Virus record (IMG/VR): IMGVR_UViG_2541047437_000015
Origin: a virus
Lineage: Duplodnaviria; Heunggongvirae; Uroviricota; Caudoviricetes
Strand: one strand, 5' to 3'
Length of the DNA: 21,659 nucleotides
Within the stretch, counting starts at the first letter, position 1; each line of letters starts with the position of its first letter. A model generated the notes under the pieces. It was given only the letters and a program-made list of their open reading frames with translations. It was not told the origin of the DNA and searched no databases. The translations under genes and the position numbers were made by a program. This document shows, piece by piece, positions 861 through 19,925 of this stretch.

Positions 861-1598
861 TCATTCACTCTCTTTCAAACCAGTTTTAACTGTTTGTGGT
901 TTTGGGTAAGGCTGGACTTTGAATAGCTTTGTGTTGAGGCGTTTTCTGGCCCTCTTGTTCAGAAACCGGATGTAACGAAACTGTCGGAACTTATGAACAC
1001 TGGCTCTGTCAATATTAGCCCTCAGATGTTCACCTCGTTGTCCGCCTCGTTTAATGGCATTCCTGCAAATCTCGTGATACCACTCGCCATCAAGTTCATA
1101 GAATATTGATTCATGGCTGCCTACATAATCAAAATTGCTTGCCTGATACACGACACCAAGACAGCCACAACGCTCATCTGCAAACGACTGAACCCACTGT
1201 ACCTGCGGATAAAGCTGCCTGATTAGCTTGAGCGCGTAACTGATTGCCCTTGATTCGGAGTTTCTCGGCATACAGTCATGCAGCCATAGCCGGTTAAGCT
1301 CCATATATTCTCGGTTCTGCGTACCCGTTACGACGCGTGCACCACTGTTTGGGTTAAGGGCGTAACCCCATTGCATTACGCCAACAAGTTCCCGTTCTGA
1401 AAATATGCCCAGATGAAGGTAGGAGTTATTTACGAAACGGTGGCTGTAATGTTTATTGACGATGACCAGTCTGGCCAGCCAGCAACTTATTGTCTCAACC
1501 CGCAACTCACGGGAGCCATAACCAACGATATTGTCGTTATAGCGAATAAGTTCAGGCGTGCTGATGATTCGGGATGTGACTTGCTTTCTGTTCCCCAC
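861..1598 (-). CDS. mom: DNA modification protein Mom-like (adenine modification, anti-restriction)
   Basis: 245-aa ORF with GTG start at 1598 and AAGGAAA 9 nt upstream. It sits immediately downstream of and overlapping com and is the last gene before the prophage end, exactly as mom does in Mu. Function is assigned by synteny, not by a motif I can point to. Confidence 0.75.
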
Positions 1599-1752
1599 GA
1601 CAGGATTTCCTTGTGTATGTGGGGTGCTCTGTGGCGCTCGGAGATGTGATTTGATTGAGGGTTTTACAGCGCGGACATTTTACTTCCAGATAACTGAAAC
1701 TGGCCCGTGCCAGTAGCTTATTGCAGTGTCGGCACCGTATGTTTCGATACAT
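1552..1752 (-). CDS. com: Com-like zinc-finger translational activator of mom
   Basis: 66-aa ORF from ATG 1752 (GGAGG 11 nt upstream). [30 protein letters not shown] is a C-x2-C...C-x2-C finger closely resembling Mu Com. The track's 81-aa version starts at an upstream TTG and is probably over-extended. The 3' end overlaps the mom start by 46 nt. Confidence 0.8.
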
Positions 1753-1945
1753 GACCGCATAACCTCCTGCTTTGTTGTTGATGCCTTTCTCATGCAATCG
1801 ATCGACAAAAACGATCGATTCGATTTGTTTAATTGATACAACAAATAGATTGAAAAGTCATCAACAATGATTCAGGGAGGTGATTATTTACTTAAAGAAA
1901 ACGAAGAGTTAGGTGGTGAAAACGATCATAAAATGATCATTTTAT
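1753..1945 (-). promoter_or_regulatory. com-mom upstream regulatory region with four GATC (Dam) sites: 1800, 1813, and the palindrome GATCATAAAATGATC at 1924-1938
   Basis: GATC positions read directly from the sequence. In Mu the mom promoter is controlled by Dam methylation of clustered GATC sites (OxyR binding) and activated by C. No promoter hexamers are assigned with confidence. Confidence 0.5.
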
Positions 1946-2025
1946 TGACTTTTTATACAGTGAAGGTAGGATCACGCGTATATGTAGTATGTTTCAAATC
2001 AACAGGATACTACATAAAAGTGAAA

Positions 2026-2051
2026 CCCAGCATAGCTGGAACTATGCTGGG
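2026..2051. other. Perfect 10-bp stem-loop (CCCAGCATAG-ctggaa-CTATGCTGGG) in an AT-rich intergenic region
   Basis: Inverted repeat read directly; no U-tract follows on either strand, so it is not a canonical intrinsic terminator. Confidence 0.5.
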
Positions 2052-2163
2052 TCAATCTGTAAAAACTTGCATCAATGCTTTACTTCGAGCTCGTGGCGTA
2101 TCCTATGATATTCCCCGGTCTCCTGTAAAGCAGAGATGCATAAAAAGGAGATCTTTATCATGG

Positions 2164-2331
2164 ATGAAAGAGCCTGTTTGCCCTGCCTGTAAGACTCCCT
2201 TACAGCTCATCTATCGCCGTTCTCGATCTCAAAATGGCAAGACATACAAACCCAAAAATGCTTCCTGTTTCAGGATGCTGATATGTCCTGCCTGTTCTCC
2301 CAGGAGGGAAAATACACAAAACGTGCATTAA
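2164..2331 (+). CDS. Candidate small zinc-ribbon protein (55 aa, CPAC...x24...CPAC)
   Basis: C-terminal part of track ORF 1867..2331. ATG at 2164 preceded by AAGGAG at 2145-2150 (13-nt spacing, rather long). Two CPAC motifs 24 residues apart. It is on the opposite strand to every other gene here, so it may be spurious. Confidence 0.3.
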   Translation: MKEPVCPACKTPLQLIYRRSRSQNGKTYKPKNASCFRMLICPACSPRRENTQNVH

Positions 2332-2340
2332 CAAACTCAC

Positions 2341-2360
2341 CCGGCAGGGAAACCTGCCGG
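2341..2360. terminator. GC-rich stem-loop CCGGCAGG-gaaa-CCTGCCGG between convergent ORFs
   Basis: Perfect 8-bp stem with a GAAA tetraloop, located between the minus-strand 81-aa ORF stop (2370) and the plus-strand candidate ORF stop (2331). U-tracts are weak on both strands. Confidence 0.4.
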
Positions 2361-2369
2361 TCGGTATTG

Positions 2370-2615
2370 TTACATCATAGTACCGTCAGTTCCGGGCTGA
2401 ACCGGCTCTGGTTGCTCTACGGGTTGAGGATCATTTTCCGTGCTGTTTTCAGCCGGAGAACGGCCAACCATTCGGGCCAGCACTTCATCAACATATGCGT
2501 CGATTTGTGCCTCAAAATCCTTGCGAACCTGCGCCTTCAGCACGCGGTTCACTTCTTCAGAATAAAGTGCCTGTTTGACAAGCTCTTCAGTAACCGTGCC
2601 TTTAATCTCTGGCAT
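2370..2615 (-). CDS. Hypothetical acidic protein (81 aa), cargo gene
   Basis: ORF with strong RBS AAGGAG 8 nt upstream of ATG 2615. Composition looks protein-like (E/K/V/A-rich N-terminal half, Pro/Glu/Gln-rich acidic tail). No family recognised. Confidence 0.6.
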   Translation of the reverse strand: MPEIKGTVTEELVKQALYSEEVNRVLKAQVRKDFEAQIDAYVDEVLARMVGRSPAENSTENDPQPVEQPEPVQPGTDGTMM

Positions 2616-2650: not shown

Positions 2651-2833
2651 TCAGAGCGGGGTCGGGTCGTTTGGGGATGACGGTGCCTGTGCTGTTTTAC
2701 TGAGTTTTTCAGCTGCCGCATCATCAATTTTACGGCGAATATAATTTCTGATGACCTTATAACCACCGCTCACCAGATATAACGCACTGACCACAGCGCA
2801 GAAATAAAGCAGCATTGTATGAACGAATGTCAT
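2651..2833 (-). CDS. Hypothetical small membrane protein (60 aa; one predicted N-terminal transmembrane helix followed by a basic segment)
   Basis: ORF with TAAGG-type RBS about 7 nt upstream of ATG 2833. Residues 4-22 (VHTMLLYFCAVVSALYLVS) are hydrophobic, followed by a KVIRNYIRRK basic stretch. Confidence 0.55.
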   Translation of the reverse strand: MTFVHTMLLYFCAVVSALYLVSGGYKVIRNYIRRKIDDAAAEKLSKTAQAPSSPNDPTPL

Positions 2834-2946: not shown

Positions 2947-2987
2947 CCCGCCAGCCATATCATGACCGGCGGGATTTTTTTATTCTG
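2947..2987 (+). terminator. Plus-strand-oriented intrinsic-terminator-like hairpin (CCCGCC...GGCGGG followed by ATTTTTTTATT), directly abutting the esterase stop codon
   Basis: 6-bp GC stem with a ~15-nt loop and a T7 run on the plus strand. On the minus strand, where the neighbouring genes lie, the A-run precedes the hairpin, so it would not act as a canonical terminator for them. Confidence 0.4.
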
Positions 2988-5019
2988 TTACCGCTTTTTT
3001 CACTTCCACCACAATGCTGTCAATCAGCACCGGGTAAGTTGCATTTTTTGTGATATCCGTTACGCGGAGTTTGTCCACCGGGAAAGTTCCTACTGGTGAC
3101 TGCGTCAGGGTAAACGCGGCACCATCCTGACCATCAATAACCGGAATAACCTGAAGGCTGTTATTTCCTGCAAAACGGAAGGCCAGCGTATGCCATTCAT
3201 TATCAAATGCACCAAAGGTTCCCAGTTTCTGGTTATTTGTTGCCACTTTTGCATTGTGGTACATCACATTCAGGTCTTTTGCGTCTGTCTGGATGTAGAA
3301 CGATGCCAGCAGATTATTCCCTGCATCCCCTGTCAGGGTGACACCCTGCGGCAGAGAGGAAACCGGCCAGTAAAGCCCCATGACATACTGGTTTGCCACC
3401 AGGTCGCCAGGTACTTTAAAACGACAACTGATTAAACCACCATTTTTCAGCAGTTCAGCACCAGTACCGGCATCATGATCCAGATACCAAGATGATTTAC
3501 CTGTTTCCTTGGTCAGTTTCATTGCCTTACCACCTGTGCCTCCTGCATCACTGATAATTTCAGCTTTACCGCCAGCCGGCTCCCAGCCCTGGGCTTTCAG
3601 ATTTCCTTCTGACTCACTGACACGATAAGACAGCAGTGTTGTGGTTACTGCTTCAGTTTCTGAAGGTGACGGCACTGGTGCTTCAGTTTCAGAAGATGGA
3701 ACATCGGCTTTTACTGTGGTTCGCCCCGCATGAGTCAGAACTGCCGTGGCCAGACGGTCGGAAATAATCCCACGACGTGCCCATGAACTGAAATGGCTGG
3801 CCCGGTCCGCAGATGTCCAGGTGGCGGCACTGTTACGCCACGTTGAGCCGTAATAACCAATGGATTCAATATCCGGGTCTTCTGCCGGATTGTTGGTGGG
3901 TACATTCGCGTCATTTTCATCTGTCATTAATGGAACGAAATGAATGTTTTTATCTGTTTTGTTTTTGTAGCCGCCATAGATTGCCTGGTATGCCGGTTCA
4001 TTTTTCTGTTTCCAGAAATACGTGGTATCGCCACAAATCCACGGAACGCCAGCAGCACTGCCACCGGTACACTGTTCCGCCTGTTCAGCCAGGTCTGCGC
4101 GGAATTTTTCCACCATCGCCAGAAACAGCGCGGAATGCTCCGTCGGCTTCGCATCAATATCAAACTCGCCCTGCATCCACACCACAGCAAGCAGGCGGTT
4201 TTTCGGGTTCTTCGCCAGTGCCGCTTTTGTCCGGCTGATTAAGTCCTTATACAGCGGCTTATCCACACCCCAGCGGGCTGAGTCCTCTGAAGCACCCGTG
4301 CTGTCACTGTACGTGCCGTCAGCACCCGCCGTGAATGCAGAACCACCACGGCAGCAGGGAACCAGCAGAATCCCCGCATCTGCCGGAATAAACGGCAGCA
4401 GTTTTTTGGCAATGTGAAGCCCCTGACCCACGGTGCCATATTGCCCTTTAGCCACATCCGCTTTCGGGTGATTTTTTCCACTCATATCCTGCACATCATG
4501 CAGACAGTGGTCGGCCAGAATGATGTCGTTATACTGACAGGCTTTACCTCCCGGCGTGACTGTACTGCGACGGGCTAACTGCATAATACGCGGTTCGGGG
4601 CGGTCATATGTCTCCGGCAGTGGCAGACCTTCACCGTAAGCCATACCGTTTGACTGACCAGCAAGAACCACCACGTAATACCAGGAAGGGGAGCTGGAAG
4701 CAGTTTCATTTCCTGACGGACGGGTATGTGTTTCAGCATTATCCCAGTCTGACGGTTCAGCAGTACCGGCAACATCAGCACTTAACGGAATGACCGCACC
4801 AATACCCGCTCCGGTAATTTCCACACTCGGATCACCGGATACTGGCCTTACCCACAGGCAATCCCGTGTATTAAAACTGATGAGACAGTCAGCAAATGTC
4901 ATTCCTCCTTTTGTTTCGGCCGGAGGAAAGGGAGCCTCAAGAAATGCCGCTGTACCACCGGAAACTTTAACAGTAAAGTTTCCGGGCATTGATGATAGTT
5001 GAACCCATTTGGACGTCAT
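2980..5019 (-). CDS. SGNH/SASA-family esterase, putatively a sialate O-acetylesterase-like (NanS-p-like) protein, with a C-terminal lectin/carbohydrate-binding-like domain
   Basis: 679-aa ORF. VVVLAGQSNGMAYGE contains the GQSN nucleophile motif typical of SASA/SGNH esterases. A Ser/Thr/Glu/Pro linker (SETEAPVPSPSETEA) precedes a ~200-aa beta-rich C-terminal domain. This architecture resembles the prophage-borne NanS-p esterases of E. coli. Confidence 0.6.
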   Translation of the reverse strand: MTSKWVQLSSMPGNFTVKVSGGTAAFLEAPFPPAETKGGMTFADCLISFNTRDCLWVRPVSGDPSVEITGAGIGAVIPLSADVAGTAEPSDWDNAETHTRPSGNETASSSPSWYYVVVLAGQSNGMAYGEGLPLPETYDRPEPRIMQLARRSTVTPGGKACQYNDIILADHCLHDVQDMSGKNHPKADVAKGQYGTVGQGLHIAKKLLPFIPADAGILLVPCCRGGSAFTAGADGTYSDSTGASEDSARWGVDKPLYKDLISRTKAALAKNPKNRLLAVVWMQGEFDIDAKPTEHSALFLAMVEKFRADLAEQAEQCTGGSAAGVPWICGDTTYFWKQKNEPAYQAIYGGYKNKTDKNIHFVPLMTDENDANVPTNNPAEDPDIESIGYYGSTWRNSAATWTSADRASHFSSWARRGIISDRLATAVLTHAGRTTVKADVPSSETEAPVPSPSETEAVTTTLLSYRVSESEGNLKAQGWEPAGGKAEIISDAGGTGGKAMKLTKETGKSSWYLDHDAGTGAELLKNGGLISCRFKVPGDLVANQYVMGLYWPVSSLPQGVTLTGDAGNNLLASFYIQTDAKDLNVMYHNAKVATNNQKLGTFGAFDNEWHTLAFRFAGNNSLQVIPVIDGQDGAAFTLTQSPVGTFPVDKLRVTDITKNATYPVLIDSIVVEVKKAVTE

Positions 5020-5118
5020 AATAATCAGCCTGTTCCTGAATAAACTGAATTATCATATCCACAGACCGATAAACGCCATTTTGCGTTAATTCAGTAAAGG
5101 CCCAACAAAGAGAGCGTC

Positions 5119-5679
5119 TTATTTTTCCGAAACGCTCGCAGGATAATAACGATAAAGGGTTGAAAGGCCGATATCAAAAATAAGTGCCACCTGTCTTCGA
5201 CTGACACCCCCGGCCAGTAAACGCCCGACCTGCTCGTATTGTTCCTGCGTGAGACGACGGGGTCTGCCGCCGGTTCGTCCCCTTTCACGGGCAGCTGCAA
5301 GACCAGCCCGTGTCCGTTCGACAATTAATTCACGCTCCATTTCTGCCAGCGCACCCATTATGTGAAAAAAGAAGCGCCCCATGGGGGTTGACGTATCAAT
5401 GTTGTCAGTAAGACTACGAAAATTTATCCCCTGTTGCTGTAATTCATCTGTCAGCGCAACAAGGTGGCGCATACTGCGCCCCAGCCTGTCCAGTTTCCAG
5501 ACCATCAGTGTGTCACCGGGTTTTAGTTTCTTCAGTGCCCGCTTCAGTCCCGGCCGCTGTGTCGTTTTACCACTCATTTTATCTTCAAAAATCTGCTCAC
5601 ATCCTGCACATTCCAGCGCATTTCTTTGTAAACCTGTGTTCTGGTCATTTGTTGATACGCGTATATAGCCAATCAGCAT
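5119..5679 (-). CDS. gin: Gin/Pin/Cin/Hin-family serine DNA invertase
   Basis: 186-aa ORF. MLIGYIRVSTNDQN...VWKLDRLGRSM...FRSLTDNIDTSTPMGRFFFHIMGALAEMERELIVERT is near-identical in pattern to Mu Gin, with the catalytic Ser in the RVST motif. RBS AAGGAAGG 8 nt upstream. Lies adjacent to a gix-like site. Confidence 0.9.
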   Translation of the reverse strand: MLIGYIRVSTNDQNTGLQRNALECAGCEQIFEDKMSGKTTQRPGLKRALKKLKPGDTLMVWKLDRLGRSMRHLVALTDELQQQGINFRSLTDNIDTSTPMGRFFFHIMGALAEMERELIVERTRAGLAAARERGRTGGRPRRLTQEQYEQVGRLLAGGVSRRQVALIFDIGLSTLYRYYPASVSEK

Positions 5680-5733: not shown

Positions 5734-5760
5734 ATCCCTGAAACCTTCGGTTTACGGGAT
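5734..5760. other. gix-like recombination site A (gin-proximal): ATCCCTGAAACC-TTC-GGTTTACGGGAT, 12-bp half-sites with an atypical 3-bp spacer
   Basis: Imperfect palindrome read directly. The inside half GGTTTACGGGA is identical to the inside half of site B. It resembles Mu gix TTCCTGTAAACC-GA-GGTTTTGGATAA as I remember it. Confidence 0.6.
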
Positions 5761-6105
5761 ACTGTAAACAGGGCCGCGAATGCCCTGCCATCGAACGGAG
5801 CGGCTGTTGCAGCGAATAAACTCGCCACTCCAAGAAATATTAATGGTGTCCCATTTGACGGAACGCAGGATATAAATATTACATCGGGGATGACGCAGTC
5901 TGTGGCTGACTCACGTTATGTTCAAAGCATTCGAAGAGGTTCAAGGTCAACGATTGGAATGCAATATAATATTTTTGAGGTTCCTGACGGATGCGTACTT
6001 ACAGGGCTTGATGTCGCTGGTGATGGTAATGCAACGGTAACCGCATATTATCGACCTGTTCAGTTTCTGATAGATGGTTCGTGGAAAACAGCTTCCAGCG
6101 CATAA
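5749..6105 (+). other. Silent alternative tail-fibre C-terminal cassette (S'-variable arm); in frame from the gix core, no start codon of its own
   Basis: Translation from 5749 reads GLRDTVNRAANALPSNGAAVAANKLATPRNINGVPFDGTQDINITSGMTQSVADSRYVQS...YYRPVQFLIDGSWKTASSA, paralleling the C-terminus of the expressed fibre (GLRETVNKAADALPSGGTAVAANRLATPRNINGVPFDGTLDINITSGMTQSTADGRYVQ...YYRPVQIYINNAWRTVSSV). Track ORF 5890..6105 is its 3' part. Confidence 0.7.
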
Positions 6106-6184
6106 AAGTGCAGTAGTTCAAAAAACAGATTATCTGAATAAATATATGATGATTTTGTCTTTTCAACAAAAACAAGGTGAAATA

Positions 6185-6706
6185 ATGGAGCTTATTAACG
6201 TAAAACGATATTACCCGGAACACAAACCCTATGGTGAGGATGTTCAGTATTTCCAGAGTGAGGACGGAAGGGATTTTTATGAATCTATCCCGCTTTTCAC
6301 AAAGAAATACAAACTCTGTATTTCGCCTGTAACGGGTATTATCTGCTCTGTTGCTGAAGATGTCTCTGCTTTATATCCGGCAGGTTTTACTGTTGTTGAA
6401 GTGGACGAACTGCCGGAAGGTGTGAATATTGACGGTAACTGGCAGTTTTCTGATGGCCTGATATCAAAGGTGCCGGTAAACTGGAAGACGGTTGCTGAAA
6501 AGCGCCGCTCATCGCTGCTCCAGGAAGCCAACGAAACTGTGGATGACTGGAAAACGGAATTAAAACTGGACATGATTAGCGATGAAAATAAATTACAGCT
6601 GACGCGCTGGATGGCGTATATCCGACAGCTTAAAGAAATGCACTTTAATGATATTGCCAGTGAGGGGCATTACCAGGCGATTCCCTGGCCGGAAAAACCG
6701 GAATAA
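6185..6706 (+). CDS. Tail-fibre assembly protein (Tfa / Mu U'-like chaperone) belonging to the silent cassette
   Basis: 173 aa from ATG 6185 (AAGGTGA RBS). The C-terminal half has the pattern I associate with lambda-type Tfa proteins. It immediately follows the plus-strand fibre cassette. Track ORF 6074..6706 is over-extended at the 5' end. Confidence 0.75.
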   Translation: MELINVKRYYPEHKPYGEDVQYFQSEDGRDFYESIPLFTKKYKLCISPVTGIICSVAEDVSALYPAGFTVVEVDELPEGVNIDGNWQFSDGLISKVPVNWKTVAEKRRSSLLQEANETVDDWKTELKLDMISDENKLQLTRWMAYIRQLKEMHFNDIASEGHYQAIPWPEKPE

Positions 6707-18135: not shown

Positions 18136-18551
18136 ATGAAGCCCTTCTGGTTGCGCCCGAATACCGCTGCATCAGACTGAACCTGTGGTAAATCCCCGGA
18201 TTCAGGGGCCGCACCGTTCGTATCCACACCGACCGGCACATTGCCGTTCATGACATCTTTCAGCCAGGCCAGCGCTTCACGGTAACGGTCACGCGCCTGA
18301 TCGGAGGCTCGCTGATCGCACAGGTAATAAAAGGCAATCGCGCAACAGTGCTGAACAAGAACGGCCGGAATAACCTCCAGCGGCAACGTGTAACGGGCGG
18401 ACAGATAGCTGTCGATAAGGGCTGACGCATCTGTCAGCGCCCGGTTCAGCTTGCGCGTGTCCGGCTCATCCGAACGGGGCACAGCCAGTAACGGCCTGAG
18501 CAAATCCTCGCGGTAACGCGCCCGCATATCGGTTTCAGTGGCGTAATTCAT
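18132..18551 (-). CDS. Head-tail joining protein (Mu gp36-like)
   Basis: 139-aa ORF with 4-nt overlaps to both neighbours; position as in Mu. Confidence 0.55.
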   Translation of the reverse strand: MNYATETDMRARYREDLLRPLLAVPRSDEPDTRKLNRALTDASALIDSYLSARYTLPLEVIPAVLVQHCCAIAFYYLCDQRASDQARDRYREALAWLKDVMNGNVPVGVDTNGAAPESGDLPQVQSDAAVFGRNQKGFI

Positions 18552-18934
18552 GCACGGGCCTGTTCCGCTTTGTTACCGGTCTTTTTCCGGGGAGCATCCT
18601 GTCCGGCTTCGGCTTCGGCTTCGGCTTCGGCTTCGGCTTCGGCTTCGGCTTCGGCTAAATCTGTACCGGCCACTGCATGAACCACACCCGCCACGCTCCC
18701 CGCATCATCAGCAGACGTCTGTAGTATTCGCACAGTGAGGCATGGCTCCTCCTCCAGTCGGGCAAGCTGCTCCGGGGTGACCTCAACCTGCTGACGTCCA
18801 CGCGTGAACAGGAACCCCGCACGACGAAACGCCGAACGACTGCAACGCACTTCTGCCAGCACCGTGACAGAATTGTCACCACTGACCTGAAGACCTGAAT
18901 CATCTGTTGCTGCCACAGTGTGATGTTCATTCAT
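18548..18934 (-). CDS. Small head-associated protein (Mu gp35-like) containing an (Ala-Glu)x8 repeat
   Basis: 128-aa ORF downstream of the major head gene. Contains the in-frame hexanucleotide repeat at 18605-18655. Confidence 0.5.
   Translation of the reverse strand: MNEHHTVAATDDSGLQVSGDNSVTVLAEVRCSRSAFRRAGFLFTRGRQQVEVTPEQLARLEEEPCLTVRILQTSADDAGSVAGVVHAVAGTDLAEAEAEAEAEAEAEAEAGQDAPRKKTGNKAEQARA
18605..18655. repeat. Hexanucleotide tandem repeat (GGCTTC)x8 plus a partial unit, encoding (EA)8 on the minus strand
   Basis: Read directly: cggcttcggcttc... Perfect copies, in frame. Confidence 0.95.
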
Positions 18935-18977: not shown

Positions 18978-19925
18978 TTACAGATAATCCGCGACAACCA
19001 GCTCCAGCTTACCCTTCATCTCGTTAGAGACGGTTGCGTTTCCGTCTGCGAACAGTTCACGCTCCAGCAGCTGCACCGCCTGTTTTTCCAGCGAGGTGGG
19101 GACAACAATATGGGTGGGTTTAATGCCGAGTTTGCGGCCACCGTCAGCGGTAAATTCGCGCATGGCTGACCAGCCGTGCCACAGTGCATCCAGCGTCAGC
19201 GGTGACTGCATCATGTAGGCCATCTGCCAGAAGCCGTAGCCCACATTGCGACGGGCGGATGCACCAAACACAAATTCGTTATCGGTGAATGCGCGACCTT
19301 CATCGACTTTGGTCTGGGCAACCAGTTCAGCCTTACGGCGATCCTGATAAATCAGCGGTTTTACCGCGCGGGAGCAGTCAAGCAGATACCAGGCCGGACC
19401 GCTGTAATCAGCCTGTGCGCCGACAGAGCCGGTTTTTGCCACAAACATATTGCTGACCATCTGCGCATCCCCGGAGCCATCCACTTTGGGGTAAACCGGA
19501 TGTTCGGTATCAAAGAAGTTCTGACCGTCATAGCAGGCCGCACTGATCCCGTCACGCAGGGCAGCAAAGACCAGCTCATCCGGTTGTACCGCCGCAGCGC
19601 GCCCCATCTCCTGGAACAACGGGGAATAAATACCGAGGTTGTCGTCTTCGAAGTCATCGCGGCTAATGGCGACAGTGCCTTCAAAAGTTTTGTTCACGAT
19701 GGCATAGCCATAGGCTTTCATCTTCTCGATGACGCGGGAGCCGATCCACTCACGGAACTGCGGGAACTGCCCCAGCCAGCCGTAGGTGTTGGATTTCGAG
19801 GTGGAGGGCACGGTCATCGCAATTTTTTTGTACTGCGACGGGGCCATGGACATCCCGGCCTGAAAATCAGAACGGTAGCCCGTCATCAGGGCGGTGATCA
19901 TCGCCGGTGTAATCGGGGTAGGCAT
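18978..19925 (-). CDS. T: Major head (capsid) subunit, Mu T-like
   Basis: 315-aa ORF following the protease/scaffold gene; size and position match Mu T (~305 aa). Confidence 0.75.
   Translation of the reverse strand: MPTPITPAMITALMTGYRSDFQAGMSMAPSQYKKIAMTVPSTSKSNTYGWLGQFPQFREWIGSRVIEKMKAYGYAIVNKTFEGTVAISRDDFEDDNLGIYSPLFQEMGRAAAVQPDELVFAALRDGISAACYDGQNFFDTEHPVYPKVDGSGDAQMVSNMFVAKTGSVGAQADYSGPAWYLLDCSRAVKPLIYQDRRKAELVAQTKVDEGRAFTDNEFVFGASARRNVGYGFWQMAYMMQSPLTLDALWHGWSAMREFTADGGRKLGIKPTHIVVPTSLEKQAVQLLERELFADGNATVSNEMKGKLELVVADYL

Follow-up and report, generated by a model that had tools for sequence, protein, structure and literature searches.

The DNA analyzed here, referred to as the window, is a stretch of 21,659 nucleotides from a tailed phage (Caudoviricetes; IMG/VR record IMGVR_UViG_2541047437_000015). 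On the minus strand, positions 2980..5019 hold an unbroken open reading frame of 679 codons with an ATG start. An earlier note, based on the letters of the window, had placed a 679-aa esterase of a Mu-like phage at these positions. The reading frame was correct, and its strand, which had been left unstated, is minus. The assignment to a Mu-like phage is also sound, as baseplate genes of the Mu Gp45/46/47/48 type, an invertible fibre segment flanked by 185-nt inverted repeats (5740-5924 and 6946-7130), and the genes for Gin, Com and Mom were all found in the window. The reading frame and its neighbors are arranged as follows.

5119..5679, minus strand: Gin-type DNA invertase (Pfam Resolvase and HTH_7), adjoining the nanS-p-like gene upstream
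5020..5118, minus strand: spacer of 99 bp between gin and the nanS-p-like gene, part of it conserved in a second lineage
2980..5019, minus strand: nanS-p-like coding sequence, 679 aa plus stop (open reading frame list and translation)
2651..2833, minus strand: DUF1378 gene, 60-aa protein with one hydrophobic helix (Pfam PF07125, E 1e-38)
2370..2615, minus strand: DUF826 gene, 81 aa, third gene of the module (Pfam PF05696; phrog_311)
2341..2360, minus strand: GC-rich hairpin CCGGCAGG-tttc-CCTGCCGG, 10 nt past the DUF826 stop, read from the sequence
1552-1752, minus strand: com (Pfam Zn_ribbon_Com)
861-1598, minus strand: mom (Pfam Mom)

The nanS-p-like, DUF1378 and DUF826 genes occupy ~3.3 kb between gin and com/mom; in phage Mu the distance from gin to com is 94 bp. 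Relative to Mu, com/mom form the downstream edge of this insert, and a GATC-rich region (~1800-1975) lies upstream of com/mom. Neither a consensus promoter nor a terminator was detected in the gin/nanS-p spacer, and a scan gave no convincing sigma-70 site there, so that read-through from gin may be possible. The hairpin behind DUF826 is a candidate end of the module transcript; a terminator scan called a 13-bp stem at 2053-2024 and did not call this hairpin. The same arrangement (gin, nanS-p, DUF1378, DUF826, com) is seen again in a lineage of only 66% identity. In a Salmonella Mu-like prophage the homologue follows gin with two small genes between. In Stx/lambdoid phages, too, nanS-p is directly followed by a gene of the DUF1378 family (~309 records, ~53% amino acid identity). 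In LC567840, for example, position 19620 is the end of nanS-p and 19778 the start of the DUF1378 gene.

The translated protein is 100% identical to WP_010917876.1, which is annotated in the databases as a sialate O-acetylesterase, and the identical gene is present as an intact copy in more than 150 complete genomes of E. coli, specifically STEC. The protein matched phrog_143 end to end, and NCBIfam has no model for it. Residues 1-13 are kept in a lineage with only 60% identity to the protein, which supports M1 as the start. A common form of 669 aa lacks 10 residues of the second linker and begins at the same Met1. A start at Met11 as the source of the 669-aa database entries was thereby ruled out. 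The proposed layout of an N-terminal domain, an esterase core, a linker and a beta-rich C-terminal domain proved to be real, and the domain bounds could be mapped.

4780..5019, minus strand: N-terminal domain, aa 1-80, small all-beta, cupin-like barrel, in place of DUF1737
4684..4779, minus strand: linker 1, aa 81-112, Ser/Ala/Thr-rich, predicted disordered (composition; pLDDT <50)
3721..4683, minus strand: NanS-type SASA/SGNH esterase core, aa 113-433 (3PT5 match, Pfam SASA, motifs)
aa 121-125, minus strand: block I, GQSNG with the oxyanion Gln and the nucleophile Ser123 (codon at 4651-4653), aligned with GQSNA 17-21 of 3PT5
aa 224-229, minus strand: block II, RGGSAF, same as in 3PT5
aa 282-287, minus strand: block III, MQGEFD, same as in 3PT5, containing the SASA-specific (H/M)QGE
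aa 406-411, minus strand: block V, R-A-SHFS, His409 codon at 3793-3795, corresponding to R-x-SHFS 303 of 3PT5
3646..3720, minus strand: linker 2, aa 434-458, T/V/P/S/E-rich, 10 aa of it absent in the common 669-aa allele
2983..3645, minus strand: lectin-like jelly-roll C-terminal domain (DUF6645), aa 459-679 (6YP6 match, Pfam DUF6645)

The core is a NanS-type esterase (CAZy CE6-like). Residues 104-428 matched E. coli NanS/YjhS, the chromosomal 9-O-acetyl-N-acetylneuraminate esterase of solved structure (PDB 3PT5), with a phmmer E-value of 1.9e-118 and ~66% identity over 325 residues. A search for the Pfam SASA profile, which the earlier note had suggested together with one for DUF1737, gave a significant match to PF03629 at aa 116-312 (46.0 bits, E 6.5e-12), above the gathering cut-off of 24.8 bits. 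The SASA/SGNH assignment therefore stands. The four NanS active-site blocks are unchanged among 11 aligned homologues, and they are identical or conservative with respect to NanS. The QGE motif has been described as delineating the SASA family (PMC9487903). NanS is without the block V Asp, and a main-chain carbonyl stands in for it in the acid role (PMC9487903, PMC10792757). The Ser-His-Asp arrangement that had been expected of such an enzyme does not apply here, since NanS itself has no catalytic Asp. The peptide VVVLAGQSNGMAYGE, which corresponds to aa 116-130, had been read as a GQSN motif with an extra Gly. This was a misreading. The residue after GQSN varies between A, G, S and M (GQSNAM in NanS, GQSNGM or GQSNSM in lambdoid NanS-p, GQSNMM in a Salmonella relative), all variants are of equal length, and GQSNGM thus contains no insertion. 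With 66% identity to NanS and ~80% to active NanS-p alleles, the core is predicted to be active on 9-O-acetyl sialic acid. Every nanS-p allele tested from EDL933 and O104:H4 gives an active esterase, and for close lambdoid homologues activity on Neu5,9Ac2 and mucin was described (review PMC8065619). A literature search returned no enzymatic, expression or localisation report for the 679-aa allele.

The lectin-like character of the C-terminus was confirmed as well. Residues 459-674 matched 6YP6, the structure solved for the C-terminal domain of NanS-p (E 1e-111, ~85% identity), and Pfam DUF6645 (PF20350) was found in this domain with an E-value of 2.4e-69. Four aromatic residues proposed to bind sugar, Y545, Y550, Y575 and F646, are conserved; they map to Y510/Y515/Y540/F611 of vb_24B_21. 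A full-length AF2 model built from an 11-sequence alignment was poor (mean pLDDT 59) and was not used for a fold search; the folds were assigned from identity with the 3PT5 and 6YP6 sequences.

The N-terminal domain sets this protein apart. DUF1737 (PF08410) gave no Pfam match in the 679-aa protein at E-values up to 1, whereas lambdoid homologues do carry it. Remote homology of the two domains was ruled out by profile-profile comparison (hhalign probability 0.2%). The N-terminal domain was confined to NanS-p-like proteins encoded by Mu-like prophages of E. coli, Shigella and Salmonella. An exhaustive HMMER search of 1.8 billion representatives yielded five matches, four of which were NanS-p-like N-termini or fragments. 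The fifth, the 1445-aa repeat protein P0125, looks compositional and was discarded. Searched against one genome per species the N-terminal profile gave no match, and in IMG/VR it was confined to two lineages from E. coli/Shigella. A weak match to phrog_4772 was seen (E 0.005). A divergent subfamily had been suspected on account of the GQSNGM motif. The protein does belong to a separate subfamily; however, its mark is the N-terminus, where an unrelated domain is found and DUF1737 is absent, and not the motif.

At the DNA level, homology to lambdoid nanS-p starts at the 3' end of linker 1 (gene nt 335-349), and no DNA homology to lambdoid nanS-p was found upstream of gene nt ~335. The nanS-p-like gene is a mosaic formed by recombination with lambdoid copies. 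Its N-terminus goes with the carrier phage, and the core and the C-terminal domain exchange freely. Mu-type and lambdoid copies recombine, giving chimeras, and the databases hold chimeric or partial nanS-p copies. All three domains are under purifying selection: dN/dS came to 0.12 (core) and 0.24 (C-terminal domain), and in the N-terminal domain pN was well below pS. The architecture persists in lineages of 29-66% identity.

The resemblance to prophage NanS-p noticed earlier holds, with 79-82% of the core residues and 77-82% of those in the C-terminal domain identical to lambdoid NanS-p. Both types share the four core blocks, the DUF6645 domain with its aromatics, a Ser/Thr/Pro-rich linker, the lack of a signal peptide, a DUF1378 gene that follows, and STEC prophages as their home. 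They differ in the N-terminus, which is DUF1737 in the lambdoid proteins and an unrelated beta domain of ~80 aa with a longer linker here. They also differ in the carrier, a lambdoid phage there and a transposable Mu-like myovirus here, and in the site, which in lambdoid phages such as 1717 lies after stx or the late promoter and ahead of the lysis cassette, and in the window is the interval from gin to com/mom. From this Mu-like site it follows that the gene is not under Q/pR' late antitermination. With NanS/YjhS (3PT5) the phage protein has in common GQSN(A/G), RGGSAF, MQGEFD and R-x-SHFS, a Ser-His dyad without Asp, and the SASA oxyanion hole. NanS is a single-domain protein of ~330 aa that belongs to the nan regulon and carries an export signal, whereas the phage protein has additional N- and C-terminal domains and no export signal. 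In SGNH tailspikes and haemagglutinin-esterases, too, a viral genome brings an O-acetyl-esterase and a lectin-type domain together, but the esterase described here is of the SASA family and not of the HE or GDSL tailspike type, and no sign was seen that it is incorporated into virions, forms trimers or has an adaptor domain.

Taken together, we consider it likely (probability about 0.8) that the gene encodes a NanS-p-like sialate O-acetylesterase with a sugar-binding tail, carried as cargo on a Mu-like prophage, whose product is cytoplasmic and freed at lysis. The core would act as a NanS-type SGNH/SASA hydrolase through the Ser123-His409 dyad and a SASA-type Gln/QGE oxyanion hole, and would strip sialic acids, whether free or bound to mucin, of their 9-O- (and 7/8-O-) acetyl groups. 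As a non-catalytic glycan-binding module, the C-terminal jelly-roll would tether the enzyme to its substrate. A signal peptide or membrane segment was not found by a Kyte-Doolittle heuristic (hydropathy maximum 1.5 in a 10-aa window over the first 50 residues and 1.4 in a 19-aa window over the whole protein), which argues for synthesis in the cytoplasm. The enzyme would then enter the gut lumen when the phage lyses some of the lysogens. Sp18 was reported not to be mitomycin-inducible (PMC2669165), and release by lysis would consequently depend on rare spontaneous Mu-type induction. De-acetylation could turn Neu5,9Ac2 into a carbon source for growth and open mucin glycans to sialidases, from which the surviving lysogens would gain. 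The gene presumably came in as part of a three-gene module (nanS-p, DUF1378, DUF826) between gin and com/mom, or was incorporated into that module, and it has since exchanged segments with lambdoid nanS-p copies coexisting in STEC genomes.

The earlier note had left open whether the enzyme is a released moron or a virion component, and the released moron is the better supported of the two. A virion-associated esterase-lectin, whose N-terminal domain docks to the Mu-like tail or baseplate and which acts in a receptor-destroying role on mucus or bacterial glycans, seems unlikely to us. The adjoining gin gene is no evidence of a structural role, because gin ends the fibre-switch region and the com and mom genes that follow it in Mu are non-structural. 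Nevertheless, the moron model gives no reason for a conserved, selected and phage-type-specific N-terminal domain. An N-terminus that tracks its carrier, combined with a recombining core and C-terminal domain, would be the signature of an adaptor. The corresponding broader idea, that the NanS-p N-terminal domains (DUF1737 and the beta domain) are phage-type adaptors to a virion or partner and that NanS-p is a virion enzyme directed at mucus or glycans, and more than metabolic cargo for the lysogen, likewise appears improbable.

A natural substrate on the bacterial surface instead of host sialoglycans (O-acetylated O-antigen, or a capsule such as K1-type polysialic acid), with a role in lysogenic conversion or superinfection exclusion, has to be weighed as well. 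SASA enzymes also act on acetylxylan (PMC9487903), and de-acetylation of O-antigen was raised as possible (PMC8065619). However, the surface of the living lysogen would be out of reach for a protein that has no export signal, the core is 66% identical to NanS of known substrate with blocks that are identical or conservative, and the close lambdoid homologues are active on Neu5,9Ac2 and mucin. We regard this role as very unlikely. Mosaicism and the chimeric or partial database copies could also point to a decaying, non-functional remnant of prophage recombination, but such a fate is very hard to reconcile with a full-length, intact gene that is identical in more than 150 genomes, with conserved catalytic and binding residues, with purifying selection, and with an architecture that outlasts divergence to 29-66% identity.

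The sialate O-acetylesterase read here as prophage cargo brings no new enzyme chemistry. Through NanS-p esterases EHEC can exploit O-acetylated sialic acids of mucin, and the number of copies is believed to bear on fitness in the gut. Published accounts assign NanS-p to Stx/lambdoid prophages and give its layout as DUF1737-SASA-CTD. The data presented here reveal a separate, conserved NanS-p subfamily that rides on transposable Mu-like prophages. As the carrier is reported not to be SOS-inducible, expression and release of the gene are probably under another regime than those of the stx-linked copies. Counts of nanS-p alleles that are based on DUF1737 or on stx linkage would miss the Mu-type copy, and the two alternative N-terminal domains provide a natural experiment on the role of the NanS-p N-terminus. 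The subfamily defined by the N-terminal domain was present in 205 of 5,426 complete E. coli genomes (~4%), mostly STEC, and it was also detected in Shigella and Salmonella.

One ATG-started ORF of 679 codons occupies window positions 2980..5019 on the minus strand in the ORF list; in translations of this interval the minus strand is clean and the plus strand is full of stops. The peptide quoted in an earlier note, VVVLAGQSNGMAYGE, lies at aa 116-130. The note's placement of the gene on a Mu-like phage was confirmed: the baseplate, invertase, Com and Mom genes are of Mu type, and the window is a Mu-like prophage. The relevant features are as follows.

861-1598, minus strand: Mom
1552-1752, minus strand: Com
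1867-2331, plus strand: 154-aa ORF between the DUF826 gene and com, matching phrog_26524 (unknown function; E 2.5e-52), hypothetical in RefSeq
Minus strand: DUF826 gene, followed by a GC-rich hairpin
Minus strand: DUF1378 gene, 60 aa with one hydrophobic helix
2980..5019, minus strand: nanS-p-like gene, three domains separated by two low-complexity linkers
aa 1-~80 of its product: N-terminal domain, the point of departure from published NanS-p, then linker 81-112
aa ~113-433: esterase core (SASA and 3PT5 matches)
aa 459-679: C-terminal domain (DUF6645 and 6YP6 matches)
5119-5679, minus strand: Gin-type invertase
5740-5924 and 6946-7130: 185-nt inverted repeats bounding a segment after the tail-fibre gene
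Around the gene, minus strand: tape measure, DNA circularisation protein, Mu Gp45/46/47/48-type baseplate proteins and tail fibre

The core is the SGNH/SASA-type esterase that had been proposed. It matches Pfam SASA above the gathering threshold and aligns over 325 residues with 3PT5, the crystallised NanS/YjhS esterase of E. coli O157:H7 (E 1.9e-118, ~66% identity). The four 3PT5 blocks described in a structural survey (GQSNA, RGGSAF, MQGEFD and R-x-SHFS; PMC10792757) are all present, at aa 121-125 (GQSNG, with Ser123), 224-229, 282-287 and 406-411 (His409), and do not vary among 11 aligned homologues that represent three lineages. By profile match, blocks and catalytic His the protein belongs to SASA/NanS, and a NanS-type catalytic apparatus is present. 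NanS is unusual among SGNH hydrolases in lacking the block V Asp and in having a SASA-type Gln/QGE oxyanion hole (PMC9487903); a missing Ser-His-Asp arrangement, which the note would have taken as refutation, is therefore not applicable to this family. The supposed extra Gly in GQSNGM is a substitution without change of length, the position after GQSN being occupied by A in NanS, by G or S in lambdoid NanS-p and by M in a Salmonella relative.

The suggestion of a lectin-like C-terminus also held. This domain is Pfam DUF6645 (E 2.4e-69) and is ~85% identical to 6YP6, the solved NanS-p C-terminal domain (E 1e-111), which Franke et al., as cited in PMC8065619 and PMC10462455, describe as a lectin-like jelly-roll and probable carbohydrate-binding module. 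The aromatics proposed for the binding site of vb_24B_21 (Y510, Y515, Y540 and F611) are all conserved, as Y545, Y550, Y575 and F646. The protein has a glycan-binding domain of the NanS-p type.

At the N-terminus the protein departs from the published family. Lambdoid NanS-p proteins start with DUF1737 (PMC10462455), as precomputed Pfam annotation of the lambdoid homologues also indicates, whereas a Pfam search of the 679-aa protein for DUF1737, a check suggested in the note, gave no match even at E up to 1. All lambdoid copies resemble the gene in DNA sequence only from gene nt ~335-349 onward, and profile-profile comparison gave the two kinds of N-terminus a 0.2% probability of homology. An exhaustive HMMER search of 1.8 billion representative proteins returned five matches. 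Four are N-termini of NanS-p-like proteins or pieces of such N-termini, and the named sources are E. coli, Shigella sonnei and Salmonella enterica; the remaining match (P0125), a repeat protein of 1445 aa, is unrelated. Against a 60%-identical lineage the domain has pN 0.24 and pS 0.79 (saturated). It is a real coding unit, and its start is fixed at Met1 by the conservation of residues 1-13.

In its predicted function the protein is a NanS-p. Lambdoid alleles are experimentally active, as summarised in passages of PMC8065619 and PMC8319020. By analogy, the protein would O-deacetylate Neu5,9Ac2 and mucin sialic acids, would be set free as a fraction of the lysogens lyse, and would benefit the surviving population. 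The most interesting alternative, an enzyme attached to the virion, would account for an N-terminal domain that tracks the carrier phage type while the rest recombines. It is improbable: fold search, the other proteins of the window and gene position, outside the structural operon, lend it no support, and the single PHROG match to a 'tail protein' lies within the esterase core. A bacterial glycan as substrate is somewhat less likely still, given the closeness to NanS and the lack of an export signal; a heuristic hydropathy scan of the whole protein found nothing resembling a signal peptide or a transmembrane segment. That the gene is a decaying remnant is very unlikely, being contradicted by its conservation and by purifying selection (dN/dS 0.12 in the core, 0.24 in the C-terminal domain).

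The protein entered the databases with the Sakai-era genomes and already carries the automatic annotation of a sialate O-acetylesterase; its enzyme chemistry is ordinary. The RefSeq entry (WP_010917876.1) goes under 'DUF6645 domain-containing protein' or 'sialate O-acetylesterase'. Complete E. coli genomes with a 100% identical gene number more than 150 and are mostly O157:H7 or other STEC; Mu-type N-terminal DNA occurs in 205 of 5,426 complete genomes of the species. Published accounts count a DUF1737 N-terminus and a lambdoid, stx-proximal location as characteristic of NanS-p; the window's protein shares the C-terminal domain but lacks DUF1737, and its carrier is Mu-like rather than lambdoid. 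No paper linking nanS-p to Mu-like phages was found in the literature searched. The value of the gene lies in its alternative N-terminal domain, its unusual carrier phage and regulatory regime, and its evidence of exchange between Mu-like and lambdoid prophages.

The distance between gin and com is 94 bp in phage Mu and ~3.3 kb in the window. The extra DNA holds the nanS-p-like gene, the DUF1378 gene, the DUF826 gene with its hairpin, and the opposite-strand ORF (1867-2331), which spans a terminator-like hairpin (13-bp stem, 2024-2053) on the other strand. The order gin, nanS-p, DUF1378, DUF826, com recurs unchanged in another lineage of Mu-like prophages, from E. coli/Shigella, whose esterase is only 66% identical to the window's. 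After Com this lineage carries a C5 cytosine DNA methyltransferase (PF00145; loci L003 and L005) in place of Mom, and appears to have swapped the anti-restriction modification enzyme and kept the translational regulator. In a Salmonella Mu-like prophage a 29%-identical N-terminal domain is fused to a GQSN esterase located after gin, with two small genes in between. In ~309 Stx/lambdoid phage records nanS-p is likewise followed directly by DUF1378 (~53% protein identity); the two genes thus move as a pair in phages of both types.

Neither a promoter nor a terminator of consensus type was found in the 99-bp spacer between gin and the gene, so transcription could continue from gin into the gene. 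A GATC-rich, Pmom-like region lies downstream of the nanS-p module, just ahead of com, and the module is therefore not in the com/mom transcription unit. The GATC cluster (~1800-1975), which includes the palindrome AATCGATCG-N7-CGATCGATT, is reminiscent of the region through which Dam and OxyR control mom in phage Mu. The window element is similar to Sp18 of O157 Sakai, which is described as intact, Mu-like and not inducible by mitomycin C (PMC2669165). Since Sp18 is not SOS-inducible, the Mu-type nanS-p copy would not be co-induced with Stx.

Judged by sequence similarity, the gene has a mosaic structure. The N-terminus clusters with the Mu-type lineage only; for most of the core and C-terminal domain, lambdoid copies (79-82% and 77-82%, respectively) are closer than the other Mu-type lineage (69-74%). 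In two short stretches, aa 511-540 and 661-679, the pattern is reversed. A natural chimera of the reciprocal kind is a 643-aa E. coli protein (P0068): it opens with DUF1737 and a proximal core of lambdoid type, and from the distal core through the linker to its C-terminal domain it matches the window's gene at 100% identity, which suggests that nanS-p copies of lambdoid and Mu-like phages have recombined recently. In E. coli E2855 (locus L001, 13152-20040) the Mu-like prophage is nested in a lambdoid one (NinG, NinH, Q, tRNAs), and a second SASA esterase gene, of lambdoid type, begins ~9 kb from the Mu-type copy, so exchanges could occur easily. Two Stx-phage records deposited in GenBank show such nesting too, with a 4-bp target duplication, and have the gene in a region annotated 'inserted Bacteriophage Mu-like phage'. 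Linker 2 (window 3646-3720; aa 434-458) varies in length: in the most widespread database allele (P0008, 669 aa), 10 residues of the SETEA(P)V repeat are missing, apparently through slippage during replication of this short repeat.

The window has open genes for tail fibre and fibre assembly within and next to the invertible segment (6741-7706, minus strand; 6074-6706, plus strand); in strain E2855 the corresponding genes (6372-7836 of L001) bear the annotation of frameshifted pseudogenes. Pfam has no match for the window's fibre protein. Between head-associated genes, a 128-aa ORF (18548-18934, minus strand) ends in a perfect (Glu-Ala)8 repeat (AEAEAEAEAEAEAEAEA) and is possibly a length-variable decoration or scaffold-like protein.
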